This document shows positions 5,950 to 28,176 of a stretch of 64,000 bases of DNA, in pieces. Each line of letters starts with the position of its first letter. The first letter of the stretch is position 1. The notes beneath the pieces are model-generated. The model was not told the DNA's origin, made no database searches, and saw nothing but the letters and a program-made list of their open reading frames with translations. The position numbers and the translations under genes were made by a program. This stretch comes from Candidatus Latescibacterota bacterium. GTDB lineage: Bacteria; Latescibacterota; UBA2968; UBA8231. The stretch lies in assembly GCA_965203355.1 (NCBI GenBank), contig OZ241889.1, positions 3,680,001-3,744,000 of the forward strand. Reading direction: 5' to 3'.

Positions 5950-8900
5950 TCAGCGAATCAACGCCAGCTTGGCCGTTTGAACCGCCTCGTCGGTTTGCAA
6001 CACAGCCCAATACACGCCAGAAGCCGCCGCCGCGCCCGCGGCCGTGCGACCATCCCAACGCACCCGGTGCGTCCCCGCCTCCAGCCAGCCAGCGGCCAAG
6101 GTGCGAATGGATTGTCCCAGCAGATTATAGACAGCAAGCCGCACCACACCGGCCTCGGCCAGCGCAAAGGGAATGGTCACGGCCGCGTTGAACGGCGAGG
6201 GAAACGGATCGCCCAGACCCAAAAGCCGCGCCCCGGCCACGCGCTTAGCCGCACTGGTTGGTGGCTCCCCCACATTCACATTCTGCAACTGCCAGTGCTC
6301 GAAAGAGGCGGCGCGATCTTGATTGGTGATATGGCGGAACTCGATAATGTTGGCGCCGGTGCGTAAGTATGATGGGGCCAAGACGAGATACCAAGACGTC
6401 CAATCCGCGCTCGCTGGAACCGGATTGTAAGACCGTCCATTGATAAAAATGACGACTTCATTGTCGCTTATGTCCTTTGCCGTAAAATAACACGCGACAC
6501 TGGAATGGGTTTGCTCATCAAAATCAAAACCGAATTTGACGCTTCTGGGATTTTTGGTAACGGCCGGCGGGCTGTATCCGAACAGCCCTCGGCTCGGCAG
6601 CGACTCCACCGCTTCGCCTTCAACAATAATGCGCTTCGCCCCGGAAGCCTGAGACCCTGTAACAACGACCTTCACGTCGCCGCTTCGCGCTCCGATTGGG
6701 ACCCTAACCACGATGCGGCTATCGCTCCAAGTCACGTAATCGCCGGGCACGGGCCGGACATTGGGCGTAAAGCGGACGTAACCGCTCCCCCGCGACGAGC
6801 CGAAATTGGCCCCGGTCAGGGTCAGGCGGTCTCCGGGTTTGACTCGGCTCGGAGCAACGCGGCCCAAGTAGGGGCTTGTTATCTCCAAGCGAATAGCGTT
6901 GCTGGTTCCGGCCGAAGTGCGGACGGCGACATTTCCAGAGCGCATGTTGGCGGGAACGCGAAACCGGATGCGGGTATTAGACCAAGCGATATACGAAGAA
7001 GAAGGAAGCGCGACCGAACCAATACGAACCGAACTACGCCCCCGCAACGAGCCGAAATTGCGCCCGCTGACGGTCACGCCTTGACCGGACTGCGCCCGAC
7101 GCGGGGAGAGGCTGATAATCCGAGGAGAAGCACTCGTTATCTCCAAGCGAATGGCGTTGCTGGTTCCGGCCGAGGTGCGGACGGCCACATGACCTGAACG
7201 CATGTTGGCGGGAACGCGGAACCGGATGCGGGTATTAGACCAAGCGATATACGAAGAAGAAGGAAGCGCGACCGAACCAATACGAACCGAACTACGCCCC
7301 CGCAACGAGCCGAAATTACTACCGCTGACGGTCACGCCTTGACCTGACTGCGCCCGACGCGGAGAAAGGCTGATAATCCGAGGAAAAGCACTAGCGGTTC
7401 TAGTAGTGCTATCGGCAGCTCGCATAATCGGCAGCACGAGTTTGCCGTAGCCGCTGTCGTTGTCCCGGCCCCGAGTTCCTATGTCAACCGTTGCCGCAAC
7501 AAGCGCGTTCCACAGTTGAGCACGCGAGTACGATGGGTTCGCCGACTTGATCAGGGCCGCCGCGCCAGCCACGTGGGGAGCCGCCGCGGAAGTCCCGCTA
7601 AAACCATAATATCCCATCGGCTTTCCATAAGAAACCGTCGATACTCCACTCGGCGCGACGAGTTCGGGCTTGAAGCGGCCATCGGTAGTGGGACCTCGGG
7701 AACTGTAATCTGCAATCCGACCTAGATTGTAGTAGTCATACTGGACCGCCCCGACGGCCATGGCTCCTCGGGCGTCCGCCGGGGTCGAGATACTGTTCTT
7801 AGCGACCGCATACTTTTCAAGATTGTGATTATATGACCATATTTTTAGCCTTCTAGGTAGGGCATCTTGGTTGCGAATAGCAATGTTATAGCGCCCCGCT
7901 TCTTGCGCTTCATATTCGATAATTTCTACGGGAAACCACCGGGAATTATCTTGAACATCGGTACTTCTGGCGGCTAGTTCTAAATCGCCAGCGGAGTTTG
8001 TAAAATAGAGATACAAGTCGTAGTTCTGAGCGGTGGTGGGCCAATCATTCCAAGTCAAGTAAACGTCTATCTCATCCCCTTTCTCGGCTTCAAAGCTCAA
8101 CACCGCATCTTCGCCGCCAAAGTTGTGCCAACGGTCCTCGTCGCGATCAGACCAGAATCCATCGTAATGGCTCTGGGCGTAATTGCCCGCTGAATTTACC
8201 CAGAGAATGCCCTTGTTGGCCGCGTCATTTACAATATCGCAGGCCAGCCCTCGCCCATCGCCAAAGCCGGTTGCATTGAGAGTTCCAGAGTGGCTTATCA
8301 CATCAATGCCGTCTCGTATGGCACGGTCCTTGGCGTTCTCAAGATCAACCGAATCCCCCACCTTATAGAAGTAGAGTTCGGCTTCCGGGGCCACATCGTG
8401 GATAATCTCGGCACAAGCGGTGCCGTGGACACTATCGCCAGCGTATATTCCCTCACCCGTAAAGTCGAAGTACCGCCAACGCGCTGGCATGTCTCCAGAC
8501 AGTTGTTTAGCCCCCTTAAATCCATCGTCAATAATCGCCACCTTGACCCCTTGGCCTCGCACACCTCTGAAGTAATTATCATGCGCTTTGATGAGCCGCC
8601 GCCCTTCGCTGAACGTCGCTTGAGAATGCGGCCGATGCGGCCGGCGGACAAAGCGAACCTCCGGTAGCTCGGAAACCGCCAGCAGCGCCGCCGCCGGAAC
8701 CGAAACCCGCATCAGACTCTTAGACTGGGCCAGCACCCGCCCGCCCAGCGCCGCCAGCGACGACGTATCAATCGAAGCCGACCCTTGGCCAAGATGCGGA
8801 ACCAAGATGACGACGACCGGGTCCGGCAAATCGCCAACCGATTTCGCCGCTCGGGGTGCGGCCAACTCCCACAACGCGCTCTGTATCTTGGCCGGGCCGT

Positions 8901-8997
8901 CGGGCTTGTCCGGTGTGAAGTCCAGATTTTGTCCCCAAAGGGATATGTAGCTAAGGACGCCCAAGAAAAGGGCGGTCGCGATTCTATCAGCGATCAT
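5950..8997 (-). CDS. Secreted S8 (subtilase) serine peptidase with IPT/TIG repeats and C-terminal FlgD-Ig/T9SS-like sorting domain
   Basis: Catalytic motifs IIDDG, HGTAC, AGN and FSGTSAAAP; three IPT-like units; C-terminal FPSPFN...YNLLGQ...WDG...SGVY. The start was moved to the ATG at 8997, which precedes a signal peptide (ORF track extends to 9081). Confidence 0.88.
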   Translation of the reverse strand: MIADRIATALFLGVLSYISLWGQNLDFTPDKPDGPAKIQSALWELAAPRAAKSVGDLPDPVVVILVPHLGQGSASIDTSSLAALGGRVLAQSKSLMRVSVPAAALLAVSELPEVRFVRRPHRPHSQATFSEGRRLIKAHDNYFRGVRGQGVKVAIIDDGFKGAKQLSGDMPARWRYFDFTGEGIYAGDSVHGTACAEIIHDVAPEAELYFYKVGDSVDLENAKDRAIRDGIDVISHSGTLNATGFGDGRGLACDIVNDAANKGILWVNSAGNYAQSHYDGFWSDRDEDRWHNFGGEDAVLSFEAEKGDEIDVYLTWNDWPTTAQNYDLYLYFTNSAGDLELAARSTDVQDNSRWFPVEIIEYEAQEAGRYNIAIRNQDALPRRLKIWSYNHNLEKYAVAKNSISTPADARGAMAVGAVQYDYYNLGRIADYSSRGPTTDGRFKPELVAPSGVSTVSYGKPMGYYGFSGTSAAAPHVAGAAALIKSANPSYSRAQLWNALVAATVDIGTRGRDNDSGYGKLVLPIMRAADSTTRTASAFPRIISLSPRRAQSGQGVTVSGSNFGSLRGRSSVRIGSVALPSSSYIAWSNTRIRFRVPANMRSGHVAVRTSAGTSNAIRLEITSASPRIISLSPRRAQSGQGVTVSGRNFGSLRGRSSVRIGSVALPSSSYIAWSNTRIRFRVPANMRSGNVAVRTSAGTSNAIRLEITSPYLGRVAPSRVKPGDRLTLTGANFGSSRGSGYVRFTPNVRPVPGDYVTWSDSRIVVRVPIGARSGDVKVVVTGSQASGAKRIIVEGEAVESLPSRGLFGYSPPAVTKNPRSVKFGFDFDEQTHSSVACYFTAKDISDNEVVIFINGRSYNPVPASADWTSWYLVLAPSYLRTGANIIEFRHITNQDRAASFEHWQLQNVNVGEPPTSAAKRVAGARLLGLGDPFPSPFNAAVTIPFALAEAGVVRLAVYNLLGQSIRTLAAGWLEAGTHRVRWDGRTAAGAAAASGVYWAVLQTDEAVQTAKLALIR
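6878..7393. repeat. Intragenic tandem duplication, 2 x 258 bp (86-aa IPT/TIG domain)
   Basis: GTTATCTCCAAGCGAAT... recurs at 6878 and 7136. The peptide PRIISLSPRRAQSGQGV...NAIRLEITS is repeated almost identically. Confidence 0.93.
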
Positions 8998-9115
8998 ATT
9001 GATTTCACCATTGCTCCACATTATACGGCGGGTTGAACATCGGCGGCGGCTTATAATACGCCGGTCAAAACGAGACAGCAACGAAACTTGCGGCGGACGC
9101 TAGCGAAAACTCGGC

Positions 9116-12097
9116 TCAGCGAACCAACGCCAGCTTGGCCGTTTGAACGGCACCTCCGGTTTGCAACACAGCCCAATACACGCCAGAAGCCGCCTCGGCT
9201 CCCGTCGCCGTGCGACCATCCCAACGCACCCGGTGCGCCCCCGCGTCCAGCCAGCCAGCGGCCAAGGTGCGAATGGATTGTCCCAGCAGATTATAGACAG
9301 CAAGCCGCACCACACCGGCCTCGGCCAGCGCAAAGGGAATGGTCACGGCCGCGTTGAACGGCGAGGGAAACGGATCGCCCAGACCCAAAAGCCGCCCCCC
9401 GGCCACGCGCTTAGCACTAAACGGCTTCCACAAGGCCACGTCTTTCAACTGCCAACGGGCAAAGGATGTGGCGCGATCTTGATTGATGATGTTGCGGAAC
9501 TCAAGGACGTTTTGACCGGGCTGGAGATATTTTGCATCGAGAACGAGATACCAAGTCCGCCAGCCCGCCCCAGCTCTGATCGTTTCATATCGCTGTTCGT
9601 TGAGGAAAATGACCAACTCGTCGTCGCTTATTTCCTTAGTCGAAAATTGACACAGGACATCGCGCTGGATCCCCGCAAAACCGAATTTGACGCTGTTGGG
9701 ATTCTTGCTAACCGCTGGCGGGCTGTACCCGAACAGTCCGCTGCTCGGCAGCGGCTCTATCCATTCGCTGCCAATCTCCACTTGCGCCGCCCCAGTGGCC
9801 CCATCGGCCACAAAAACCCGCACCCCACCACTGCGCGCCGCGGACGGAACGCGGACGACAATAACGCCGTTAGACCAAACCGCATAATCGTCGGCCTCGG
9901 CTCGTACATTGGGATTAAACAACACGTACCCGGCACCGCGCTCAGCACCAAAGTTGCCGCCGCTCAGCGTCAAGTACTCGCCAGCCTGTACTTGCGGGGG
10001 CGAAAGTTGCGCCAAGTACGGGCTGGCGATTTCCAAGCGGATGGCATTGCTGGTGCCTTCAGGCGTCTCGACGGTCACCTGGCCCGAGGGCGCGTTGATC
10101 GGCACGCGAAACCGTATCGTCTCATTCGACCAAGCCTCAAACGAAGACGCCGCAACCGAATCAATCCACACAGAACGGCTATCCCGTGCGAGACCAAAAT
10201 TGTCGCCGGCAATTTCGATGAGATCGCCGGTCTTAGCCCGCGCATCCATACGAGTGTGATTGGCAAGCGCTTCAATGTAAGGCGACGCAACAACCACTTG
10301 GGCGCTATCGAGGCCGACGCCAGTTATCACCTGCACGGCACCGGTGCGCGCGCCGGTCGGTACGCGCACTCGGATCTGCGAGTCGCTCCAAGCGAGATAG
10401 TCCGAATCGCTCGGCTCCTCGTCCGCGAAAAAGACCACTTTGCCCGTCCCCCTGACGGCCCCAAAACCTTGGCCGACGATGGTAACGGGGCGGCCGTATT
10501 GGACGCGGCCAGGTGAGACGCTGGCAATTTGCGGCGCCGGCACCGACAGCACGAGTTTGCCGTATCCGGTGCTGTCGTCCTTGCCCGCTGCGCCCACATC
10601 AACGGTGGCCTCGACCAGGGCCTGCCACAGCTCGTCGCGCGAGAGGGCCGGATTGGCCGACTTGAGCAGGGCAGCGGCACCAGCCACGTGAGGAGTCGCC
10701 GACGACGTTCCCCCAAACAACCGCTCCACCCCATAAGAAGCGGTTGTCACGCCCGAAGGCGCGACCAGATCGGGCTTGATGCGGCCATCGGCGGTGGGGC
10801 CGCGCGAGCTATAGCTTGCTAAGATGTTCAAATCCCATTGGTCCTGTTGGATCGCCCCAACGCTCAGCGAGCCGCGTGCGTCCGACGGAATCCCCAAGCT
10901 GCCAGCCGGAACCGGATATTCAATGTCGTGGTGCCAAGACCACACGCGCAGTTTTTTAGGCTCGGCCGCGCCGACGCGCACCACGGAAACCCCATACGTG
11001 CCCGCTCGCCCGGCAAAGTATTCGAGGAACTCCACTGGTGCTCCGCCATCCGCGCCCTGCACATCCGTGCTTTGGCTGGCTTTTGTAATGTTGCCAAACT
11101 CGTCTTGATGGTAGAGATATAAGTCGTAGTCCGCCGTGGAGATCGGCCAATCGTCCCAAGTCAGCGTCACCCTAATGGCGTTGCCGATCTCGACTGTATC
11201 GACAAAATTCACCATGTCGTCTCCAGCCGCGAAATCGTGCCGATTGTCGCCATCGCTGTCGCGCCAAAAACTCGCGTAGTGCTTTTGGGCGTAGTTGCCA
11301 ACGGCGTTGACCCACAAAATGCCGTGGTCGGCCGCGTCATTTACGATGTCGCAGATGATTCCGCGCCCATCCCCAAAGCCCTCGCCCACCCAAGTCGCCG
11401 AGTAGTTCACGATGGCCACTCGGTTTTGTATGCAGCGATCTTTGGCATTTTCTAAATCCACTATATCTCTTGTCTTGTACAAATAGAGCTCGGCTGCTGG
11501 GGCCACGTCGTAGATGATCTCAGCACACGCCGTGCCATGGGCGTCCGTGCCAGCGTAGATCCCCGCGCCCGTATAATCGCGGAACCACCGCCGCGCTGGC
11601 AGGTCTTCGGGCAAGTTGTCGGCTCCCTTAAATCCGCCGTCGATAATCGCCACCTTGACCCCTTGGCCCTTGGCGCCGACCGCGTGTTTTTCAAATGCGC
11701 GGATGCGCCCGGCACCTTCGCTAACGGTCTGTTGCGCGGACGGACGGCGCGGCTGGCGGACAAAGGCCACGCTCGGCAACTCGGACACCGCCCGCAGCGA
11801 GGCGGCCGGCACTGACACGCGCATCAAGCTCTTAGACCGGGCCAACACTTTGACGCCAAGGGCCGCAAACGACGCCGTGTCAATGGTGGCCGCCATACCG
11901 GCTGCGGGCACCAAAATGACGACCACATCTGAGCGAGTCGGCTTGGCTGCCGCGGGCGCGGCCAGCTCCCACAGCGCACTTTCTATGTTGGGAGGCCCCA
12001 CGGGTTTGGCGGGCGCGACATCGAGGTCTTGCCCCCATAAGGGCGCAGCAAAAAGGAAAAAAGCAAAGAGGAGGCGCACGGCGATCAGGGCTGGCAC
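9116..12097 (-). CDS. Second secreted S8 subtilase paralog with IPT/TIG repeats and FlgD-Ig/T9SS-like C-terminal domain
   Basis: IIDGG, HGTAC and FGGTSSATP motifs; signal peptide; same architecture as the neighbouring gene. Confidence 0.88.
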   Translation of the reverse strand: MPALIAVRLLFAFFLFAAPLWGQDLDVAPAKPVGPPNIESALWELAAPAAAKPTRSDVVVILVPAAGMAATIDTASFAALGVKVLARSKSLMRVSVPAASLRAVSELPSVAFVRQPRRPSAQQTVSEGAGRIRAFEKHAVGAKGQGVKVAIIDGGFKGADNLPEDLPARRWFRDYTGAGIYAGTDAHGTACAEIIYDVAPAAELYLYKTRDIVDLENAKDRCIQNRVAIVNYSATWVGEGFGDGRGIICDIVNDAADHGILWVNAVGNYAQKHYASFWRDSDGDNRHDFAAGDDMVNFVDTVEIGNAIRVTLTWDDWPISTADYDLYLYHQDEFGNITKASQSTDVQGADGGAPVEFLEYFAGRAGTYGVSVVRVGAAEPKKLRVWSWHHDIEYPVPAGSLGIPSDARGSLSVGAIQQDQWDLNILASYSSRGPTADGRIKPDLVAPSGVTTASYGVERLFGGTSSATPHVAGAAALLKSANPALSRDELWQALVEATVDVGAAGKDDSTGYGKLVLSVPAPQIASVSPGRVQYGRPVTIVGQGFGAVRGTGKVVFFADEEPSDSDYLAWSDSQIRVRVPTGARTGAVQVITGVGLDSAQVVVASPYIEALANHTRMDARAKTGDLIEIAGDNFGLARDSRSVWIDSVAASSFEAWSNETIRFRVPINAPSGQVTVETPEGTSNAIRLEIASPYLAQLSPPQVQAGEYLTLSGGNFGAERGAGYVLFNPNVRAEADDYAVWSNGVIVVRVPSAARSGGVRVFVADGATGAAQVEIGSEWIEPLPSSGLFGYSPPAVSKNPNSVKFGFAGIQRDVLCQFSTKEISDDELVIFLNEQRYETIRAGAGWRTWYLVLDAKYLQPGQNVLEFRNIINQDRATSFARWQLKDVALWKPFSAKRVAGGRLLGLGDPFPSPFNAAVTIPFALAEAGVVRLAVYNLLGQSIRTLAAGWLDAGAHRVRWDGRTATGAEAASGVYWAVLQTGGAVQTAKLALVR

Positions 12098-14480: not shown

Positions 14481-14537
14481 GGTTATTCTCCCAGCGTATG
14501 CTCGCGTTCACAATACGTAAATAAAGGTAAAAAATCG

Positions 14538-14585
14538 GTAGTGATACATTTTGAAATTGACCTTCACATTGAAAGGGTCGACTAC
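14538..14585. repeat. Family-A inverted-repeat element, short copy
   Basis: GTAGTGATACATTTTGAAATT...ACTAC shares its end with the copies at 15801, 20725 and 26157. Confidence 0.6.
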
Positions 14586-14600
14586 CAACGCACGGGGCGA

Positions 14601-15734
14601 TTACTCGCAGAAGGCCAGGCCGAGTTTGTCTAAATCATGGTTCGGTATCGCTTGCGCTTGCAAAACAGCCGGGATACACCCCGTCAACTGATTTTTTCGG
14701 AGTTTTAGGGTTTGCAGTTTTTCGAGTTTTCCCAGGGCGTCGGGAATCTTCCCGGTCAACTGGTTGCTGGTCAGTTTTAGGATTTGCAAGTTTTCGAGTT
14801 TTCCCAGGGCGTCGGGAATCGATCCCGTCAACCTGTTTTTGATGAGGTTTAAGCCCGTGACGCGGCCTTGGTCGTCGGTGGTTACGCCATGCCATTGGTT
14901 CAGCGGAGCATCGCTGTTCCAGCCGCGGCGCTTCTTCCAGCCATCGCCGCCCGTAGCCTGATAGAACGCGATCAGCGTGTCCCGATCCGAGTCATCGGTA
15001 ACAGAATCATCGGTGCCAGCCGAACAGGCGTCCAACCCGAGTTTGTCTAAATCATGGTTCGATATCGCTTGCAAAGCAACCGGGATACACCCCGTCAACT
15101 CGTTACTGGAGAGGAATAGCTCTTTCAGATTTTCGAGTTGGGCTAATGCTGCGGGAATCGCCCCCGTCAACTCGTTGTCGAAGAGGTATAGGCTGCTCAG
15201 GTTTTCGAGTTGGGCTAATGCTGCGGGAATCGCCCCCGTCAACTCGTTTCTGGAGAGGAATAGGCGTTCTAGGTTTTTGAGTTGGGCTAATTCTTTGGGA
15301 ATCGCCCCGGTCAAACCGTTGTCGAAGAGGTATAGCCATTTCAGATTTTTGAGTTGGGCTAATTCTTTGGGAATCGCCCCGGTCAAACCGTTGCTGAAGA
15401 GGTGTAGCCATTTCAGGTTTTTGAGTTGGGCTAATGCTGCGGGAATCGTCCCGGTCAAACCGTTGCCGCCGAGGTGTAACCAAATGACGCGGCCTTGGTC
15501 GTCGACTTTCACGCCATGCCACTGGTTCAGCGGAGCGTCACTGAGCCAGCCGGTGCGATCCTTCCAGTTGTCGCCGCCCGTAGCTTTATAGAACGCGATC
15601 AGTGCCGCCCGATCCGAGGAATTGTCGGTAACTTTACCGGCCGGTGCCAACGGGGACGAAGCGGGGCTTTCCGGCTGGCGATCTCCACAAGCAAAAAGCA
15701 ACGAGGCACCGATCAGGACGAATAGGCTGCGCAT
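14601..15734 (-). CDS. Leucine-rich-repeat lipoprotein (plant receptor-kinase-type 24-aa LRRs, two cap domains)
   Basis: Lipobox LFAC; repeats LxxLxxLxLxxNxLTGxIP; cap DRxxLIAFYxATGGDxW...WHGV occurs twice. Confidence 0.9.
   Translation of the reverse strand: MRSLFVLIGASLLFACGDRQPESPASSPLAPAGKVTDNSSDRAALIAFYKATGGDNWKDRTGWLSDAPLNQWHGVKVDDQGRVIWLHLGGNGLTGTIPAALAQLKNLKWLHLFSNGLTGAIPKELAQLKNLKWLYLFDNGLTGAIPKELAQLKNLERLFLSRNELTGAIPAALAQLENLSSLYLFDNELTGAIPAALAQLENLKELFLSSNELTGCIPVALQAISNHDLDKLGLDACSAGTDDSVTDDSDRDTLIAFYQATGGDGWKKRRGWNSDAPLNQWHGVTTDDQGRVTGLNLIKNRLTGSIPDALGKLENLQILKLTSNQLTGKIPDALGKLEKLQTLKLRKNQLTGCIPAVLQAQAIPNHDLDKLGLAFCE
15085..15480. repeat. 72-bp tandem repeats encoding LRRs
   Basis: GAGTTGGGCTAAT...GGGAATCGCCCC recurs every 72 bp. 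Confidence 0.9.
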
Positions 15735-15800
15735 GGCAAATCCTTTCTATTTCTATAATGAGAGAAGAGGCAGTATGCGTACTCGTGTAAGAATATAATA

Positions 15801-15897
15801 TAGTGATTCGTTTTGAGGTCTCAAGCAGTCTCGGTGCGTTTTCGGTATGCTATGTCATGGAGCTTGTTCGGCACCTCTACATTTCAAAATGTACCAC
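15801..15897. repeat. Family-A inverted-repeat element
   Basis: Left end TAGTGATTCGTTTTGA; right end TTTCAAAATGTACCAC (reverse complement GTGGTACATTTTGAAA). Confidence 0.65.
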
Positions 15898-15907
15898 GGC
15901 CAAAAAA

Positions 15908-19203: not shown

Positions 19204-20660
19204 AGTGGCGGGCCGTACCGCAGCAAGGCCCGTGCCCACGAGCTGTGCGCTCGGTCGGGCACCTGCGCCAAGCGCGGCGCGGCGGCCAAGGCGACCACCC
19301 GCTCGGCGCGGCCCTGCCGCCCGTAGAACTGGAGAGCGAGCGCTTTGCCGTGGTGCCATAGCGGACCGAGGGCTGCGGGACGATCGTACGACTGCTCCAT
19401 AAAGTGCGCCACCTGCGCGGCGGCGGCGGCAAATCGCGCCTCCCCGCTCCACTCGCCCAACTCCCACAGGGCCAAGGCCGCCAAGGCTTGATCGACGAGC
19501 AGGCCGACGCTGCCCTCAACTTCTGAGTCGCAGACGTGCTGCACCCGGCCGCGGCCGTCGATACAGTGGCTGATGAGCGCGTCGCCAGCTTGCAGAGCCA
19601 CCTGCGCGGCGCGTTCGTCGCCTAACCTGGTGGCCGCAGCCAGATAGGCCCGTATCAAGGCCGCTTGGCGGTCGGCGTAGAGCGCGGGATCGGTCCACCA
19701 AGTGTCGGCCATGACTTGGCGACCGCGGAACACCCCTTCGGTTTGGTCGAAGAGGGTCCCCTCGACAAAGCCGAGCAACACCCTAGCCGCCTCGGCGTGG
19801 CCGGGCTGATCGGCTTCCAGCAACAGATGCAGCATGGCCGCCTGATCGAGAGCGTCCCGCTCGCCCGCTGGTGCGCTCCAATCGGGTGCGTACGAGTACG
19901 CGCGAAAACCACCGCTATCTCCGAGCGGCGAGGCGAGCACCGCGTCCAAGCTGGCCAAGGCCATCTGTCGCGCTGGCGCTACACCCCGCACCTCAGCATA
20001 GGCGAGCAGGAAGCGCAACGTCGAAGTTTCGAGAAATTTAGTCGGACCGCCGAAGCCGCCGTGGGCCGGGTCAAAGGCGACCGCACAGGCGCGGTAAACG
20101 GCATCTATTGCAACGGGTTTCTCAACCTGGGGACGAGCGGCGCGTTGCACCTTGGCGACGAGCACCGCGCGCTTTTCTTCGTAGGCCGTGCGCAATCGGC
20201 GCAAATAAGGCTCGACATTGGCTGGCGGAATGTCCACCGCCCGCGCGAAAACCCGCCCGTCCGGCAGCGCTACCACTAGGGCCGGCCAACCGCCGCTATC
20301 GTAGTGCTGAGCAATATCCGGCCGCTTGAACGGATCGACCTGTACGCTGACGAATTGCTCGGCGATCAGTTGGCGCAACGCGGGCGTCGGCGTGGGAAAC
20401 AGCCCCTCGCATCCCGGGGCGGCCAAATACACCAATATGGGGCTGTTTTCGCGTTGAGCGCGTGCGAACAAATCCTCGTCCCAAGCCCCCCAAGGCAACT
20501 CGCCATCGGCCCACGGCCATTCAGCCAAAACGGACCGCTCGTTGCGAGTTGCTTCTTCTGGCGGCGGCGGCTCAGAGATGGCGCAGCCCGCCAGCATCAA
20601 CAGTGCCAGCAGCTTGGCTTCAAATTGATACATCTCTTTTATATTCAATGAGTTCGGCAT
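19200..20660 (-). CDS. DUF255/thioredoxin-like plus alpha/alpha-barrel (YyaL/SSP411-like) lipoprotein
   Basis: RPDIA..Y..GGWP and FDPAHGGFGG.TKF motifs; lipobox LAGC; lacks the CxxC of canonical members. Confidence 0.7.
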   Translation of the reverse strand: MPNSLNIKEMYQFEAKLLALLMLAGCAISEPPPPEEATRNERSVLAEWPWADGELPWGAWDEDLFARAQRENSPILVYLAAPGCEGLFPTPTPALRQLIAEQFVSVQVDPFKRPDIAQHYDSGGWPALVVALPDGRVFARAVDIPPANVEPYLRRLRTAYEEKRAVLVAKVQRAARPQVEKPVAIDAVYRACAVAFDPAHGGFGGPTKFLETSTLRFLLAYAEVRGVAPARQMALASLDAVLASPLGDSGGFRAYSYAPDWSAPAGERDALDQAAMLHLLLEADQPGHAEAARVLLGFVEGTLFDQTEGVFRGRQVMADTWWTDPALYADRQAALIRAYLAAATRLGDERAAQVALQAGDALISHCIDGRGRVQHVCDSEVEGSVGLLVDQALAALALWELGEWSGEARFAAAAAQVAHFMEQSYDRPAALGPLWHHGKALALQFYGRQGRAERVVALAAAPRLAQVPDRAHSSWARALLRYGPPL

Positions 20661-20678
20661 TATTTACAAAGGCCGTTT

Positions 20679-20707
20679 AATGTACGGTATGCCCCGATGA
20701 ACGTCAA
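20679..20707 (-). promoter_or_regulatory. Probable sigma70 promoter of the DUF255-rmlD-GT operon
   Basis: TTGACG-N17-TACATT on the minus strand. Confidence 0.55.
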
Positions 20708-20724
20708 GCAAGTCCCAAGGGATG

Positions 20725-20807
20725 GTGGTGCGTTTTGAAGTTTAGCGAACGGGTCGCCCGGCTCCGCCTGAACCCCGGCGACCCAAGCCCGACCGAAAAC
20801 GTACTAC
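20725..20807. repeat. Family-A inverted-repeat element (MITE/REPIN-like)
   Basis: GTGGTGCGTTTTGAAGTTTAGC...GAAAACGTACTAC; its internal core CCCGGCTCCGCCTGAACCCCG is shared with 26157-26273. Confidence 0.7.
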
Positions 20808-21081
20808 GACCGAATGATTTGGTCTAATCCCGCTTTGGCCGTGCAGGGTAGTTGCCGACCTTGACAATAGAAATGGGACCCGGCGGTGGCGGCGTGGACA
20901 GCAGGGGAAACTAGTGCGCTGTCTAGTTGCCGAACATTGACATCCCAGAACATCGGGGTCCCATTTCCGTGACTTGCGGTGTCGTGGGTGCTACTTGAGC
21001 AGCAGCATCTTGGCGGATAGGAACGCTTCGCCGGCCTGCAAGCGGTTCGTAGGCGGGCGATCTGGCGTTCATAAGGAAAAG

Positions 21082-21118
21082 AAAATGGGACCTCAAACCG
21101 AAAATTGAGGTCCCATTT
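21082..21118 (-). terminator. Intrinsic terminator, unit 2
   Basis: AAATGGGACCTCAA / TTGAGGTCCCATTT stem followed by a T-rich tract on the minus strand. Confidence 0.8.
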
Positions 21119-21231
21119 CCGTAACTCGCGGTGTCGTGTGTGCTACTTGAGCAGTAGCAGCATCTGGATGTCGAGAAACGCTTCGCCGACCTGCAAGCGG
21201 TCCTGTAAGCTGTCGATCGGACGTTTATAAA

Positions 21232-21271
21232 GAAAAGGAAAATGGGACCCCAGAACATCGGGGTCCCATTT
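21232..21271 (-). terminator. Intrinsic terminator of the 1419-aa protein gene
   Basis: AAATGGGACCCC / GGGGTCCCATTT stem followed by TCCTTTTCTTT. Confidence 0.85.
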
Positions 21272-21295
21272 CCGTGCCTTGCGGTGTCGTGGATG

Positions 21296-24200
21296 TTACT
21301 TGAGCAGCAGCATCTTCTGGACGGCGAGGAAATCGCCGCCCGCTTGCAAGCGGTAGAAGTACATCCCGGACGACACGCTCTGGCCGCTATCGTTGGTCGC
21401 GTCCCACTCCACCGCGTAGCGACCCGCCGCCTGATGCTCGGCGACCAGCGTCCGAATCGGCTGACCCAGTACATTATACACCGTCAGCCCCACGTCCGCC
21501 GCCTGCGGCAACGCATACTGAATCGTCGTCTGCGGGTTGAACGGGTTCGGATAGTTGGCCGCCAGCGAGAACACGGCCGGGCGCGTCTGTAACGACACCG
21601 GCGCGGGCAATGCCAGCCGGTTGAAGCCCAACGCCCGGTCCCAGGTCCGGTTGTCGGTGATTTCGAGGGTCGTGTACTCGATCTCGGTCGTCGGCCGGAA
21701 GACCAAGCGCAGCATCAGCTCGCCGTCGAAAACGACATCGCCGTGCGTGGCTACCGTCAACACGCCCGCTTCGGCCAGCACTTGCGGCGTAGCGAATGCG
21801 CTATCGCCTAGCGGCTGATCGGTCTGCGCCTCGACGAAGGTCAACTGGTCGGCGTCGTACGCTATCTGCAAGCCGTAGCCTTTGACCGCCACGAAGTCGG
21901 CCAGTCGCACATTAACGCCGAACTCTTCTCTTACGCTCGGCAGGACGGCTGGCGCATCCAGATATAGCCGCGCCGCCGCATTCAGCCCGGCCTGCAACGG
22001 TACCGGCTTGCCGGCTCCGCTGTTGAACCGACCGAACAACGAATCCAGGTCGACAAAGTCCAGCATCGCGTTGATGGTAATCGCGAACGTCAGCGAGACG
22101 CTTTCGGCGCCAGCCGTCGCCGTGTAGGCGACTTCAACGGCCCCATCGGTCGCCGCGTCCGGTGTGCCCGAAATCGTCCGGGTCGCCGCGTCAAACGACA
22201 GACCCATCGGCAGACCCGACACGCTGTACGTGATGGAGCCTTCGCCGCCCATCGCCATCGGCAGGACCAACGGCGTAATCGCCGTGCCCGCCGTGTAGGT
22301 GTGTGCGGCGACCGAAGTGCCCTCGACGAACGCCAAGGAGATCATCATATCCTTATCGCCGTCCATCATGCCGCTGTCTGTGTCGGTCAGTACCAGTGTC
22401 GCCGAACCTGCCGTCAAGCCGGGCAACATCGCGTTGAGCACGATCGTCTCGTCGCCCTCGGCCATACTGTCGGCCGTCGGATCAACCAACAGGCGCGTCG
22501 AACCCATGATCGAACCGGCGGCAATGGTGATGATCGGATCGAACAGGGCCGAGTAGTCCGTGTCGCGCAGGGCACTACTCGAAGCCTCATCAATCGAGAC
22601 GGTCGCCGTGGCATCCTCGGCCAGCGGCTTGCCGTCCAGCGCAGCCATGACCATTACTTCCGTCAATTCCGCCGTCTCGCTGAGCGCGCTCGGCGTCACC
22701 GACAGCACCAGAGACGTGCTTGGCGTCTCGTCGTCGGAAATCCGCAGGTCCACCTGCCCCCAACCGCCCGAAGCCGCCGCCCGAACCCCCAAGTGCTTAT
22801 GACCGTCCGCCGAAGCGTTGTCAATCGGCGACAGGAAAAGCGTCGTCCAACCCATCGTCTCGCCAGCCGCAATGGTGATCGTCCCGGCCAATGTTGCGGT
22901 GTAATCCACGTCGCGGGTGGCCATCGTTCCGCTGGCCGGCGGCACAATCGTGAAGCGGACCGTCTCGGTCGCCGGTGCCGAGCCCGACAAGGTCGCCGTA
23001 ACTCGGATTTCAGCCGTGTCGCCGTTTTCGCGCACCGCCGATTGCGACGCCATCACACTGGCGACGCCCACCGTGACCGGCGGGGCCTCGCTGACGGTGA
23101 TGGTAATGGTTTTTGCCCGGCCATTGTCGGCGTCATCGAACGCCATATAGACGACCGAGGTCATGCCTGCCAGCGTCGGCGTGCCCGAAAGCTTCCGGGT
23201 GGTAGCGTCAAACGACAGCCCCATCGGCAGGCTCGACGAGACCCGGTACCGCAGCGTTCCTTGGCCACCTGTCGCGGCGGGCAACACCTCGCTGAACGCC
23301 TGACCTACCGTCGCTTCAAAGGCTAATGCGGCCGCACCGAAACTCGGCCCTCCCGTGGCCGCGGGCGTATCCGAAGAACCAGAATCATCCATCTTCGCCG
23401 CGTCTTTCAGCGTGATCTTCGCGGTGCTGACCGTAATCTTGTCGTCGTCTTGGTTCTTGAGATTGTCCGTCAACTGCTTGATCGTGATCGTCTCGTCGTT
23501 GTCGTCTTTGCCGTCGTTGACCGGCGTGATCGTGATCGTCGTTGAGCCGGTGATCGCGCCGCGTGGAATCGTCAGCGAGCTAAGCGCTGCCGTGTAATCC
23601 ACGTCCCGCGTCGCCGACTTGTCCGGCGTCCGATCCACGACCAGCGTGATCGTCGCCGCCGCATCGAGCACTTTGCCGTTTAACGTGCCCGTCACCGTAA
23701 CGGTCGTCGCCCCGGCGTCCTCTTTGATTTCGCTCGGGCTGACCGACAGCGTGATGTCATCACTCAGCGTCTCATCGTCCGTGATCTCGAACGGCGCATC
23801 CTTCATCTGAGATGCGTCATCGCCGACTTTCGCTTGCACCGTGAATGTCCACGGATTATTCACACCGCTGTTGTCCACTGGCGTGACGCGCAGCATGGCC
23901 GTGCCTTTGGTATCACCCGCCGGGATCGTCAAGCCCTCAATCACCTCCACTTCGTAATTCACATCGCGCGTCCCGGAAGAACCCGCCGTAATCTGAAAGT
24001 CCACCGCCTTTGCGCCGGTCAAGGCTTTCTCCAATTCAACCGTCATCGTAACGTCGGTCGCTCCGGCGGCCTCGCGGATCGTCGCCGGACTCAGCGTGAA
24101 CGCCTTAATCTGCGCGACTGCGACGTCCTCGACCGTGATGGTGCCCGCATTGACCTTAACCGGAAAGGCAAAAGTTTCCATATACGTTAGGGTACTACCG

Positions 24201-25555
24201 GTACCATAAGGACTAGTCGACATGTTACCATTGCCGTTATGGTCGATACCGATGTTGACTTTCCGGCCTTTGGGAAACCTAGCAGTTATACAGTCACTCA
24301 CCGAACGCGTTGTGCTCGTTGCCGGCCATAAGCAGGGACCATATTCCGTTAATATGGTGTCGGCGGGCACCACAAAGGTATCCAAATAATCGTCATCCCC
24401 GAAAAAGTCGAACCCCAAGTCTTTTTCTACCAAGACGGTCCCCGCAGGTACGAAGTCGGATTCGTCCACATCATAACCGGGGTCATCGAATATTCCAAGA
24501 GTCCCATCGCCGTCAAGGTCTATTCCGATTGTAGAACTTTGAGGCAACCTATCCGCCCACCAGTTATTACTTTTAGCGGGTACAACGAAACCATCGGGAT
24601 CAAAGGTACCATCGCGGTCGAAGTCGAGCCGGACCTGCTTACCCGCGCTGTTTGTCCGTTTGGACTTCACCGTCAGCGTCGTATCACCACTGGCACTGAC
24701 CCCCAGCACGATCTTGCCCGCCTTATTACTCGGATCAACGGTGATCGTCATCGTCGCTTCGGTCTTCCCCTTCGGAATGGTCAGCTTTCCCAGCCCGCTA
24801 ATCGAGAAATTCACATCGCGCGCCAACGTATCGCTGGTAGCCCCCTTGCCCTCAACCACAACCAACTGGGTTTCAAGGTCGCCCTTCAACGCGCCGCCAT
24901 CCAACGTCGCTGTCACTTTAATCGGAGTCGCACCCGCCTGCTTGCCGAGCTTGGACGGCGAAAAAGAAAGGTTGATATTTCGGGGCAAACGCTCGTCGTC
25001 AATGATCTCAATATAGAAGACGCCCGTAGTACCACCTTGCTCAGTATAGGCCGCGGCGGTTTTGCCTTTCTCGAAGATGTTGCCAGTAGAGCCGCCGATA
25101 TCAACCACGATAGGAATGTTAGGCCGCGTTAGAACTTTAGCCGTATCGACCGTACCCGTTATGGTCAGCGGATCAATATCGACTGAAGCGGTCGCCGCGC
25201 GCACGATAGGTCCGATCCGATCATTGTTTATCGGGGTTATGGTGATCGTCCCGGTCGCCTTGCGTTCATCCTTCTTAATCACCAAAGAGGGGAAGGATAT
25301 GGTGAATAAATCGTTGAGATAGCGGGACGTGACACCGACAAGACGCAACGGAAGATAAAGATCGACCGCCGCCTTTAAGTTCGCATCTTTTAATTCGGCT
25401 GTTATGGTAATATCTTGCGCTCCCCCATCCTCGCGGACGGAACGCCGATCAACGGATATGTCGATGTCCTCGGTCTGAGCCGGGGCTTCCCCGGCCAACA
25501 GCAAACTGGCAATCAGCAAAAAAGGAAAGGTGAAAAGCCGCGTGTGCGTACTCAT
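21296..25555 (-). CDS. Large secreted adhesin-like protein: Calx-beta-like/Ig repeats, two putative-Ig (He_PIG-like) domains, cohesin-like domain, FlgD-Ig/T9SS-like C-terminal domain
   Basis: Signal peptide; repeated ATRDVDY / E.AG.T.V.V units; LPMGLSFDAxTRxxSGTP twice; NYPNPFNPQTTIQY...YNVLGQ...WDATND.G..VSSGMYFY. Confidence 0.82.
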   Translation of the reverse strand: MSTHTRLFTFPFLLIASLLLAGEAPAQTEDIDISVDRRSVREDGGAQDITITAELKDANLKAAVDLYLPLRLVGVTSRYLNDLFTISFPSLVIKKDERKATGTITITPINNDRIGPIVRAATASVDIDPLTITGTVDTAKVLTRPNIPIVVDIGGSTGNIFEKGKTAAAYTEQGGTTGVFYIEIIDDERLPRNINLSFSPSKLGKQAGATPIKVTATLDGGALKGDLETQLVVVEGKGATSDTLARDVNFSISGLGKLTIPKGKTEATMTITVDPSNKAGKIVLGVSASGDTTLTVKSKRTNSAGKQVRLDFDRDGTFDPDGFVVPAKSNNWWADRLPQSSTIGIDLDGDGTLGIFDDPGYDVDESDFVPAGTVLVEKDLGFDFFGDDDYLDTFVVPADTILTEYGPCLWPATSTTRSVSDCITARFPKGRKVNIGIDHNGNGNMSTSPYGTGSTLTYMETFAFPVKVNAGTITVEDVAVAQIKAFTLSPATIREAAGATDVTMTVELEKALTGAKAVDFQITAGSSGTRDVNYEVEVIEGLTIPAGDTKGTAMLRVTPVDNSGVNNPWTFTVQAKVGDDASQMKDAPFEITDDETLSDDITLSVSPSEIKEDAGATTVTVTGTLNGKVLDAAATITLVVDRTPDKSATRDVDYTAALSSLTIPRGAITGSTTITITPVNDGKDDNDETITIKQLTDNLKNQDDDKITVSTAKITLKDAAKMDDSGSSDTPAATGGPSFGAAALAFEATVGQAFSEVLPAATGGQGTLRYRVSSSLPMGLSFDATTRKLSGTPTLAGMTSVVYMAFDDADNGRAKTITITVSEAPPVTVGVASVMASQSAVRENGDTAEIRVTATLSGSAPATETVRFTIVPPASGTMATRDVDYTATLAGTITIAAGETMGWTTLFLSPIDNASADGHKHLGVRAAASGGWGQVDLRISDDETPSTSLVLSVTPSALSETAELTEVMVMAALDGKPLAEDATATVSIDEASSSALRDTDYSALFDPIITIAAGSIMGSTRLLVDPTADSMAEGDETIVLNAMLPGLTAGSATLVLTDTDSGMMDGDKDMMISLAFVEGTSVAAHTYTAGTAITPLVLPMAMGGEGSITYSVSGLPMGLSFDAATRTISGTPDAATDGAVEVAYTATAGAESVSLTFAITINAMLDFVDLDSLFGRFNSGAGKPVPLQAGLNAAARLYLDAPAVLPSVREEFGVNVRLADFVAVKGYGLQIAYDADQLTFVEAQTDQPLGDSAFATPQVLAEAGVLTVATHGDVVFDGELMLRLVFRPTTEIEYTTLEITDNRTWDRALGFNRLALPAPVSLQTRPAVFSLAANYPNPFNPQTTIQYALPQAADVGLTVYNVLGQPIRTLVAEHQAAGRYAVEWDATNDSGQSVSSGMYFYRLQAGGDFLAVQKMLLLK

Positions 25556-25735
25556 GATCTCACTCCTTTAGAAAAGGGAAAAGTGACAGAAGAAATGGAC
25601 TTAGCCCTATCACTAAGCCGCTGCATTCTTGCGTTTTTGCTAACGTTGAAAAAGACGAATGCCTCGCGGCGAGAGCTAGGGTTACGACGTCGCCCGCCGA
25701 CGAGGATGGTTTTCGTTTGTGATGTGGATGGGTGG

Positions 25736-25770
25736 CCACTGACCACTGACCACTGACCACTGACCACTGA
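25736..25770. repeat. Heptanucleotide simple repeat (CCACTGA)x5
   Basis: Read directly from the sequence. Confidence 0.95.
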
Positions 25771-25888
25771 TCGGTGGGGCTTACCGACGCGGCCGGGCAG
25801 AGCAATGCCTCTTCCCGCTTCCGTAGAGGAAGGGGAGCGAGGCGAATAGATTGGCGAGTGAAGCTAGGGCTTAATGCCCAAGAAAATC

Positions 25889-25903
25889 GGGGGGGGGGGG
25901 GGG
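25889..25903. repeat. G15 homopolymer tract
   Basis: Read directly from the sequence. Confidence 0.9.
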
Positions 25904-26120
25904 TAAATCATTGTTTTTTAAAGACTTACAGAAATAAAAACTCGGCGTTTTTTCAAGCGTAGAACAAGACACCGCCATTGCATTAAGCACCGCGCCCAGC
26001 GATGGTGTTCTTTGTGATATTGACGTTGTGCCCATGTCCTGTTAATCCGATTAAGAATGCCGCAAACGGCGGGGGTTCTATACCCAAACGCGCCGCGCCG
26101 CTCTGTGAATTGCAACGCAT

Positions 26121-26150
26121 ATTTTATGAATTTCAGTAAAGGCGTGTCAA
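26121..26150 (-). promoter_or_regulatory. Possible sigma70 promoter facing the 1419-aa gene
   Basis: TTGACA-N18-TAAAAT on the minus strand. Confidence 0.45.
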
Positions 26151-26156
26151 GTGTAG

Positions 26157-26273
26157 GTAGTGGTACGTTTTGAAATTTAGCTTTACTACCATTAATACGG
26201 ATCGCCCCGGCTCCGCCTGAACCCCGACTTCAACCGGACCGCGACAATTGGAGATTGCAAAATGTGCCACTAC
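26157..26273. repeat. Family-A inverted-repeat element (best copy)
   Basis: GTAGTGGTACGTTTTG ... CAAAATGTGCCACTAC: a 16-bp terminal inverted repeat with 2 mismatches. Confidence 0.8.
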
Positions 26274-26347
26274 CCAGGAGGCGGGCTTTTTGTCGCGGAT
26301 AGTTTGGCCTATGTTTTGTTTTTCTCATCTTACCAGAGGAACACACC

Positions 26348-27343
26348 ATGAATCCACGCGAAAAAGTCACCCTCGGCAGCAGCGGCCTGCGCGTCACCCG
26401 TCTCGGCTTGGGCTGTGCCTCCATCGGCGGTCTATACGGCGACATATCAGACGACCAAGCCGTCGCCGTTGTACACCGCGCCCTGTCGTTAGGACTAAAC
26501 CTCTTAGACACTGCGCCGCTGTACGGAGCGGGCAAAAGCGAACTCCGGCTCGGCAAAGCCCTCGCGGGCGTACCGCGCGACAGCTATGTGCTCGCGTCCA
26601 AAGTTGGGCGCGTCTTGGTCCCAACCGAACAAAATCAACAGACGGGCATTTTCGCCGGCCCGGCCGCGTATCAACCGATATTCGACTTCAGCTACGACGG
26701 CGTCATGCGCTCGTTTGACGACAGCCTCAAACGCCTCGGTGTAGAGCGCATCGACATCCTCCACATTCACGATCCAGACAACCACTGGCAAGAAGCCATC
26801 GACAGCGCGTATCCCGCGCTCGACAAGCTGCGAAACGAAGGCGTCATCCGCGCCGTCAGTGCGGGCATGAACCAGTGGGAAATGCTGGCCCGCTTTGCCC
26901 GCGAAGGCGATTTCGACTGCTTTCTCCTGGCCGGACGTTACAGCTTGCTCGACCAAAGCGCACTCGACGAACTCTTGCCACTGTGCGTACAAAAGAACAT
27001 CGGCATCATGGCTGGCGGCACGTACAACAGCGGCATCTTGGCCAAAGGCGCGCACCGAGGCGCGACGTACAACTACCAAGAAGCACCGCCCGAAATCGCG
27101 GCTAAAGCCAAGGCGCTCGAAGCCGTGGCCGCACGCCACCACGTCAACCTCAAAGCCGCCGCCTCGCAATTCGTCTTTGCCCATCCAGCCATCACCTGCA
27201 TCATCCCCGGGACCCGGCAACCCGAGCGCGTACAAGAGAACTTCGACTTGCTCACGCAGGCGATCCCGGACTCGTTTTGGGCCGAACTCCGCGACGAAGG
27301 CCTAGTCCGCGGCAATGCCCCACTGCCGATTGCCAGCGGCTAA
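26348..27343 (+). CDS. Aldo/keto reductase (D-threo-aldose dehydrogenase-like)
   Basis: DTAPLYGAGKSE, SKVGR, SLKRLG, IHDPD and GRYSLLDQ motifs. Confidence 0.9.
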   Translation: MNPREKVTLGSSGLRVTRLGLGCASIGGLYGDISDDQAVAVVHRALSLGLNLLDTAPLYGAGKSELRLGKALAGVPRDSYVLASKVGRVLVPTEQNQQTGIFAGPAAYQPIFDFSYDGVMRSFDDSLKRLGVERIDILHIHDPDNHWQEAIDSAYPALDKLRNEGVIRAVSAGMNQWEMLARFAREGDFDCFLLAGRYSLLDQSALDELLPLCVQKNIGIMAGGTYNSGILAKGAHRGATYNYQEAPPEIAAKAKALEAVAARHHVNLKAAASQFVFAHPAITCIIPGTRQPERVQENFDLLTQAIPDSFWAELRDEGLVRGNAPLPIASG

Positions 27344-27372
27344 GAAGCGTTTTTAAGTTGCAGCGCCGCTTT

Positions 27373-28176
27373 TCAGTACAGCTCATTGACAAAGTGCAAC
27401 TTGCCGTGCGGCGGGCGCTGGTACTCGCCGTGCGGCGGACGCGGCGGCAGCTTGATCTTTTTTGGCATCACGTCCTCGTAGGGCAGTTGGCTGAGGATGT
27501 GCGCGATGCAGTTGAGACGTGCCCGCCGCTTGTCGTCGGCCTCCACTGTGTACCAAGGCGCTTCGGGAATGTCCGTGTAGAAAAACGCCTCGTCTTTGGC
27601 CTTGGAATACTCGACCCACATGTTCCGCGACTTGATGTCCATCTCGCTGAGCTTCCAGTGCTTGAGCGGATTGCGGGCGCGCTCCTGAAAGCGGTTTTCT
27701 TGCTCCTCCGCGCTCACCGACAGCCAGTACTTGAGCAGGATAATCCCCGAGCGCACTAGCATGCGCTCAAACTCCGGGCACGAGTGGAGAAACTCCCAAT
27801 ACTCCTCCTCGGTACAAAAGCCCATCACCCGCTCGACGCCGCTGCGGTTGTACCAACTGCGGTCGAAGACCACAATCTCGCCCGCGGCCGGCAGGTGCGC
27901 CACGTAGCGCTGAAAGTACCACTGGGTGCGCTCGCGGTCCGACGGCGTACCCAAGGCCACCACGCGCGCCCCGCGCGGGTTGAGCGGCGCGGTGATGCGC
28001 TTGATGACACCGCCTTTACCCGCTGTATCGCGTCCCTCAAATACGATCACGACCCGCAGGCCCTGATCCTTAATCCAGTGCTGCAACTTGACCAGTTCGT
28101 AGTGTAGCTTGGTCAATTCGCGCTCGTAGTCTTTCCTCTTCATCTTCTCCGCCTTGGCGGCTTTTTTGGTTTTCAT
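27373..28176 (-). CDS. ppk2: Polyphosphate kinase 2
   Basis: FEGRDTAGKGG, QWYFQRY, FDRSWYNR and ADDKRRAR motifs; ATG at 28176 with a GGAG RBS. Confidence 0.95.
   Translation of the reverse strand: MKTKKAAKAEKMKRKDYERELTKLHYELVKLQHWIKDQGLRVVIVFEGRDTAGKGGVIKRITAPLNPRGARVVALGTPSDRERTQWYFQRYVAHLPAAGEIVVFDRSWYNRSGVERVMGFCTEEEYWEFLHSCPEFERMLVRSGIILLKYWLSVSAEEQENRFQERARNPLKHWKLSEMDIKSRNMWVEYSKAKDEAFFYTDIPEAPWYTVEADDKRRARLNCIAHILSQLPYEDVMPKKIKLPPRPPHGEYQRPPHGKLHFVNELY

Follow-up and report, generated by a model that had tools for sequence, protein, structure and literature searches.

Why should the gene for a giant secreted protein be followed by two further copies of its own last codons? The question is raised by a locus of a Candidatus Latescibacterota bacterium (contig OZ241889.1, positions 3,680,001 to 3,744,000; this whole stretch of 64,000 nucleotides is called the window, and the coordinates below are window positions). 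There, a giant gene on the minus strand ends in a short tail with a 3' untranslated region (UTR) and a hairpin, and two orphan tails of the same design stand directly behind it. These extra tails are probably the scars of a collapsed paralogous gene end, doubled at some point and afterwards spread to several loci as passengers of a transposon. The array is probably no dedicated secretion-signal switch and is probably non-functional as a swap system.

The three tail units lie where the sequence-only reading had placed them, with stop-to-stop distances of 153 and 152 bp (start to start, 153 and 155 bp), and self-BLAST of the units gave E values of 2e-57 and 1e-29. As that reading had also noticed, the tails share their start: CCGCTTGCA opens every one of them (at 21353, 21200, and 21045) and has no other occurrence on the minus strand of the window. 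The homology that it had seen in the linkers and the 3' UTR was equally evident, linkers 1 and 2 being alignable and 20–23 of the 25 nt between stop codon and stem being identical among the units (23 of 25 between units 1 and 3). Within the 5' half of the tails, units 2 and 3 match at 22 of 24 positions, and unit 1 matches them at 16 and 18, respectively. The preserved reading frame had been taken as a sign of selection or of origin from real gene ends, but chance suffices to explain it. Given 6–15 random changes in a tail, the probability of finding no internal stop is 0.84–0.67, so open frames are expected, and of the changes between units 1 and 2, 10 are non-synonymous and 4 are synonymous, in agreement with the neutral share (0.75). 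M at −5 and K or R at −6 are each invariant in 136 of 136 family ends and in 97 of 97 real ends, and at these two positions unit 2 has L and M, respectively. A small open reading frame (ORF) running in frame from linker to tail was ruled out, as the start codon in the linker lies in another frame.

The terminator that had been assigned to each unit was found in two of them. A GC-rich stem with a short loop and a U tract is present only in unit 1 (fold of −27.6 kcal/mol, z = −3.3) and unit 2 (−31.3 kcal/mol, z = −5.4, with a perfect 16-bp stem). In unit 3, the arms are split and stand 74 nt apart (z = −0.75), and the terminator scan made no call; the right arm of this hairpin continues into the distal sequence of a single-tail version of the surrounding element, and a distal 14-mer is common to the window element and an element (L128) of the sister genome G001. 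The changes in the unit 2 stem that had been described as matched consist of one compensatory pair and a 2-bp stem extension relative to unit 1. This long form also occurs 3' of real genes in relatives (e.g., L084, L092, and L094), suggesting that the unit 2 variant was likely inherited rather than co-varied in situ.

A non-autonomous transposon-like element (Table 1), unseen in the sequence-only reading, encloses the giant gene together with the 5' region and the array, and it is this element that explains the multi-copy state of the array described below. Both of its ends carry IS1-type terminal inverted repeats (TIRs), with 2 and 3 mismatches to a 17-mer; GGnnnTG ends are a feature of the IS1 family, as stated in an excerpt of PMC6807381. 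The ORF list holds no transposase within 20721–26274. At 20 of 20 orthologous sites the element is missing, the aldo-keto reductase gene abutting the DUF255 gene with no giant gene and no tails between them; the flanking DUF255 protein is 81–89% identical in these 20 genomes, which are labelled Candidatus Latescibacterota or Gemmatimonadetes/Gemmatimonadota. Each flank of the element matches the empty-site octamer at 7 of 8 positions once the ends are shifted by 1–2 nt. The same TIR adjoins IS1-family transposases in two relatives, G051 (PF03400) and G004. IS1595 was rejected as a partner, with no TIR match beside 7 inspected PF12762 loci (of 19 matches), and the flanking repeats were rejected as att sites, since they are MITEs (miniature inverted-repeat transposable elements).

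In G001, the closest genome, 40 of 72 candidates were scored, giving 19 gene-end regions, and among the candidates scored the same gene is dispersed over approximately 18 sites. When 17 loci were tabulated, with the cluster L126 and the broken L128 excluded, seven had both TIRs and 8-bp target duplications that matched at 8, 8, 8, 8, 7, 7, and 6 of 8 positions, and the remaining 10 matched at 1–4 of 8. A second tail within 1.5 kb of the gene end was found at none of the 19 G001 loci, which shows that the element functions without the array. The family in G002–G005 stands mostly in tandem clusters. Elsewhere in G001, an element end cuts a family gene after approximately 140 codons, with unrelated genes beyond (L212/L153, near 3,051,500), which is consistent with an IS1-type adjacent deletion, and a frameshifted sorting-domain remnant of AVEKM type lies approximately 1.2 kb from an element (L124, 4600–4760). 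In a third genome, G052, dispersed family copies have different ends (L195–L198), possibly by independent mobilisation; downstream of three of them are arrays of ATTCCC-N8-GGGAAT-like repeats, which resemble Neisseria dRS3.

The array is not an assembly artefact, nor is it unique to this locus and strain, as the sequence-only reading would have expected of a simple degenerate duplication. We compared contigs from the runs X1 and X2 (study P1), X4 (study P2), and X6 (a related strain), where P1 or P2 may be the study from which the window itself derives. Contigs without a single difference span the junction of units 2 and 3 and the unit 3 insert in X1, X2, and X4, and array contigs, exact or variant, come from three studies. 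The same three runs contain a joint, 20866–21249, that leads from the unit 1 hairpin directly to the distal end and represents the single-tail version of the element. Divergent array pieces with many differences were found in all four runs (the junction of units 2 and 3 is crossed by X6 record 25, for example, and linker 1 with tail 2 by X4 record 22), including linker–tail junctions with differing linker letters and further versions of the unit 3 insert. The summed contig depth over linker 1 was 2229 against approximately 490–590 in the flanks for X1 and 1575 against approximately 227 for X6, values that do no more than roughly indicate several copies and give no copy number. Together, these observations indicate that arrays exist at several other loci of the window's species, where the orphan tails look less damaged than unit 2. 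Two runs labelled sponge metagenome contain a close relative. A joint of 20787–26223 was rejected as an excision product, lying within MITE repeats with one side of 27 nt, and a search of the metagenome contigs for the tail-plus-UTR pattern returned 0 stretches.

Further information on the origin of the tails came from the paralogs of the giant gene. The window protein contains PF05345 and PF13860 domains and scores 32.1 bits with TIGR04183 (cut-off, 23), the type-A sorting domain of the T9SS (type IX secretion system), and SprA homologues were found in five of five relatives searched. As the T9SS export signal of Porphyromonas gingivalis is the last 22 residues, forming the last two beta-strands, according to an excerpt of PMC4804311, the 18-residue tail by inference overlaps the export signal. 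Fifteen full-length paralogs are encoded on a contig of 4,171,184 nt, equal in length to the contig of the window protein and hence presumably the chromosome of the window; they form one group (98/98) in a tree of the last 250 residues, a pattern that could equally stem from gene conversion. Their ends read LDIKKMLLLK in 11, LDVKKMLLLK in one, and LAVQKMLLLK in three, all preceded by GGDF. When the tails were compared with these ends, as the sequence-only reading had proposed, the whole array tail was found in 0 of 15 paralogs and 0 of 136 family ends, and the only partial match was the LAVQ tract in three genes. LAVQ, with Q at −7, occurs in just these 3 of 136 family ends, all on this one contig, so some exchange between tails and gene ends is likely, and short tracts likely moved both ways. 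None of the 136 family ends has GE[AT]F, which does occur in a real gene of more distant kinship (L102/L200) ending in GETFLAVEKMLLLK; the subfamily of this gene is likely that of the orphan tails. The proposal that the tails derive from real gene ends is supported.

The paralogs (P0001–P0013, P0015, and P0016) fall in two size classes of approximately 1,430 and 1,900 amino acids and constitute a polymorphic surface-protein family, with 35–73% identity to the window protein over residues 101–500 and 74–98%, in mosaic blocks, over residues 501–1400. The tail is 84–100% identical among them, and the variability sits in residues 100–500.

Orphan tails recur in the family. A motif search had matches in 42 of 75 family genomes (20 matches being unlisted), and, among its listed matches and those of a DNA search, single orphan tails, as pairs less than 1.5 kb apart, are present in at least seven genomes (G039, G042, G047, G048, G050, G051, and G054), with lengths of approximately 36–125 nt. 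The order in G042, G051, and G039 is a family terminator, a ribosome-binding site, ten initial codons from a family gene with sorting-domain fragments fused to them, and the orphan tail (frameshifted in G039); judged by this order, these orphans are paralogs that lost their body. Small inserted genes directly precede the orphan tail in G054 and G047, and the order in G050 is gene end, terminator, approximately 210 bp, orphan, and terminator. Gene-end scars have therefore arisen repeatedly as a by-product in this family. Regarding the suggestion that similar arrays might stand behind other sorting-domain genes, single orphans were found in these genomes, but arrays were absent from the G001 loci, and no duplicated tail within 1.5 kb was found behind 91 distant sorting-domain gene ends (a protein scan of metagenome contigs that gave 78 mostly distant loci, some of which stop sooner). 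Small inserts accumulate at a hotspot just after the first gene in the ancestral cluster (L191, L192, L204, L205, L206, and L199), among them a coiled-coil gene, a 304-amino-acid gene without a Pfam match that looks Rpn-like, and a two-gene pair that looks toxin–antitoxin-like.

From these observations, we infer a course of four steps. Deletion would have removed the body of a tandem paralog from the GE[AT]F subfamily, leaving a terminator, a linker of approximately 33 bp, and a tail. This block of approximately 153 bp would have entered the 3' end of the element via recombination in the shared UTR and hairpin, and would have been doubled there through unequal exchange. The array may then have spread by transposition in trans or by gene conversion among the approximately 15 element copies. 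Between orphan tails and real ends, short tracts would continue to be exchanged (LAVQ passing into three genes and LDI into unit 2), in the way of homologous repeats in general and without selection on the orphan peptide. The sequence-only reading came closest with its view of the array as scars left by serial integration or replacement of cargo genes: gene-end scars they appear to be, but those that could be traced in relatives come from collapsed tandem paralogs and small inserted genes, not from serial cargo replacement at this locus.

Several points weigh against this course of collapse, duplication, and transposition. The source of the linkers was not traced, a linker motif giving 3 matches in 75 family genomes against 7 control matches, none above control, so the collapse step rests on analogy (the unit 3 insert motif likewise gave 0 matches in 75 genomes). 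Both orphans share their start base, unlike the variable scars of relatives, so that a duplication step is required. Unit 3 retains KMLLLK, and its shorter length is found in 4 of 97 real ends. Variant letters at unit 2 restore KM and hence a LAVQKM-type tail, accounting in X4 for all of the listed depth at 21160/21162; orphan tails elsewhere may therefore be intact, and the decay of unit 2 may be recent. The array is also present in the run of the related strain, and the other loci of the window's species are known from short contigs and proteins. As to the element, the target duplication of the window copy is degenerate (2 of 8 at strict register), and a PF03400 search had matches in one of five genomes and none in G001.

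The main alternative in which the array has a function is that the orphan tails are maintained as donor cassettes, serving as templates from which gene conversion or deletion rewrites the final beta-hairpin of the sorting domain and so tunes export or anchoring of the giant proteins. The confinement of LAVQ to a single contig, the identical LAVQKM that orphan-type contigs give through their variant letters, the LDI that unit 2 has in common with the majority gene type, the common start base of the tails, and the position of the P. gingivalis signal all fit this view. Nonetheless, no paralog carries a whole array tail, real ends vary freely at the positions where residues were exchanged, KM is lost in unit 2, G001 has the same gene family without arrays, and the variability of the family resides in residues 100–500 rather than in the tail, and we regard such cassettes as unlikely. 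Of the silent-cassette idea of the sequence-only reading, it is a weak form, segmental exchange between orphan tails and gene ends, that has some support from the shared LAVQ, and not a swap system. The orphans could also be attachment-site scars, left when small circular DNAs with their own tail copy integrated at the conserved gene end and pushed the old end with its terminator downstream, the linkers being eroded remnants of the inserts. This is attractive for G054 and G047, with their inserted small genes, the more so as the G054 orphan has the native 3' UTR common to G042, G051, and G039 and as the site behind the first cluster gene is occupied by different inserts in different genomes. 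However, the duplicated lengths have no fixed core, no integrase was found in the inserts that were translated, and the mutual homology of the two linkers in the window fits duplication better than independent inserts; integration of this kind is accordingly a distinctly unlikely source of the array.

If the array were kept for its hairpins instead, as tandem terminators that shield the neighbours of landing sites (here the DUF255 promoter) from read-through of a strongly expressed surface-protein gene, the peptide would be mere baggage. The perfect stem and U tract that unit 2 has despite its altered peptide agree with this, as does the position of the element 14 bp upstream of a promoter-like −35 hexamer, but the unit 3 hairpin is broken, with broken-form variants at other loci, and single-terminator elements are the rule in G001, making this explanation quite improbable. 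An array of small RNAs mimicking the 3' ends of sorting-domain mRNAs, the third proposal of the sequence-only reading, draws on the resemblance of each unit to an mRNA 3' end with a stable hairpin. The promoter scan found no promoter-like site within 20720–21700, the units have the same sense as the mRNAs and are preceded by a strong terminator, and an Rfam scan of 19500–27500 gave nothing at gathering level (sole match, E = 0.8); we consider small RNAs very improbable. Last, a one-off local tandem duplication of the gene's own end, or an assembly error, would suit the regular spacing and the UTR and loop shared by units 1 and 3, but the 5' half of the orphans belongs to another subfamily, and three studies contain array contigs, both exact and variant, so this possibility is largely refuted and hardly credible. 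The collapsed gene end carried by a transposon remains our preferred explanation.

Table 1. Features of the tail array and the surrounding element (window coordinates).
Feature	Position	Strand	Remarks
Transposon-like element	20721–26274	minus	Non-autonomous, 5,554 bp; holds giant gene, 5' region, and tail array
Giant gene	21296–25555	minus	Predicted secreted protein, 1,419 aa; N-terminal part variable; Ig repeats (He_PIG); C-terminal domain T9SS type-A-like/FlgD-Ig
Unit 1 tail	21296–21352	minus	RLQAGGDFLAVQKMLLLK then stop; real gene end, LAVQKM type
Unit 1 hairpin	21238–21273	minus	Intrinsic-terminator-like, with U tract
Linker 1	21201–21237	minus	Alignable with linker 2; variants in contigs of all four runs (X1, X2, X4, X6)
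Unit 2 orphan tail	21143–21199	minus	RLQVGEAFLDIQMLLLLK then stop; KM motif lost
Unit 2 hairpin	21081–21120	minus	16 bp, long form
Linker 2	21046–21080	minus	Alignable with linker 1; spanned by 0-difference contigs in X1, X2, X4
Unit 3 orphan tail	20991–21044	minus	RLQAGEAFLSAKMLLLK then stop; 3 nt shorter, KMLLLK retained
Unit 3 hairpin	20870–20967	minus	Split by insert; arms 20956–20967 and 20870–20881
Upstream MITE	26156–26274	minus	119 bp, two inverted IS1-type ends; outer end is left end of element
Downstream MITE	20721–20811	minus	Degenerate; outer end is right end of element
Sigma70-like promoter	20679–20707	minus	Of flanking DUF255 gene, outside element; region conserved in empty sites

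The region upstream of the giant gene (25556–26150, approximately 600 bp) contains a poly-C run, GTGGTCA repeats, and several hairpins; it is kept at approximately 80% in most G001 copies, has no Rfam match, and is a possible regulatory leader. A further IS1-type end (14537–14560) and a solo MITE (15799–15901) surround a leucine-rich-repeat gene at 14601–15734, which may be another passenger. Two tandem subtilase-TIG-FlgD-Ig genes (5950–9081 and 9116–12097) have tails of another type, TAKLAL.R, with no array behind them.

The array itself is most likely a record of the collapse of a multigene family and the homogenisation of its 3' ends. More notable is its host, a transposon that spreads a giant T9SS-type cargo gene. 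IS1-derived miniature ends took up a whole secreted-protein gene of 4.3–5.8 kb, including promoter and terminator, and scattered it to approximately 15–18 intergenic sites in two sister species. The diversification of the N-terminal third under a uniform export signal offers a route to a polymorphic surface-protein repertoire in an uncultured lineage, the members of which are candidate adhesion or colonisation factors. The titles and abstract beginnings searched, covering few subscription journals, yielded nothing relevant on the domain family or its expansion in Latescibacterota, and a term search of PMC12993501 found none of secretion, FlgD, transposase, Calx, adhes, or T9SS. A bolder idea, which we hold to be unlikely, is that in some copies of this transposon-dispersed family of at least 15 giant T9SS-type surface proteins, silent sorting-signal tails with terminators of their own act as conversion donors that rewrite the export hairpin (LDIK to LAVQ) and thereby tune secretion or anchoring per paralog, likely in a sponge symbiont. 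Were the tails indeed selected donors, they would represent cassette switching of a secretion signal, of which no case was found in the titles and abstract beginnings searched.

Silent-cassette antigenic variation, as in vls and pilS, relies on promoter-less partial copies beside an expressed gene. The array is similar in that partial promoter-less copies stand next to an expressed gene with signs of segmental exchange (LAVQ/LDI mosaics), but it comprises only two cassettes, covers a conserved signal rather than a hypervariable region, and is present at some paralog loci only. It also resembles the orphan cdiA-CT/cdiI and rhs-CT modules of contact-dependent growth inhibition (CDI) and Rhs systems, yet it lacks what defines them. 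As outlined in an excerpt of PMC3150448, these modules are likewise start-less C-terminal fragments 3' of a giant secreted-protein gene, with a shared start motif (VENN there, RLQ in the array), and they encode unrelated toxin domains of 100–300 amino acids, each accompanied by an immunity gene, and other strains have them as fusions to the main gene. The array instead repeats 17–18 residues of a conserved export signal in units of approximately 153 bp, with UTR and hairpin and no partner ORF, and whole-tail fusion to a full-length gene was seen in none of the paralogs or family ends, apart from the LAVQ tract in three. The domain score connects the window protein to the type-A sorting domain (TIGR04183), with SprA homologues in the five relatives, and the tail spans most of the two final beta-strands, which hold the signal in P. 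gingivalis (PMC4804311, in the part available).

The closest counterparts of the element are TIME-COMP elements, which, in the portion of PMC4133298 available, are flanked on both sides by miniature elements, carry a passenger gene but no transposase, and show a target duplication; the mobile insertion cassettes of Bacillus follow the same plan (PMC3281130, likewise in part). TIME-COMP elements have 38-bp Tn3 ends and a 5-bp duplication, whereas the elements of the window and G001 have IS1-type ends and 8-bp duplications. The window-type element shows the hallmarks of such MITE-bounded composites, namely insertion-sequence-family TIRs, no internal transposase, an empty site in 20 of 20 cases, and a target duplication (6–8 of 8 positions in all seven two-ended G001 copies), and its passenger is a secreted-protein gene with at least 15 divergent copies in one chromosome.

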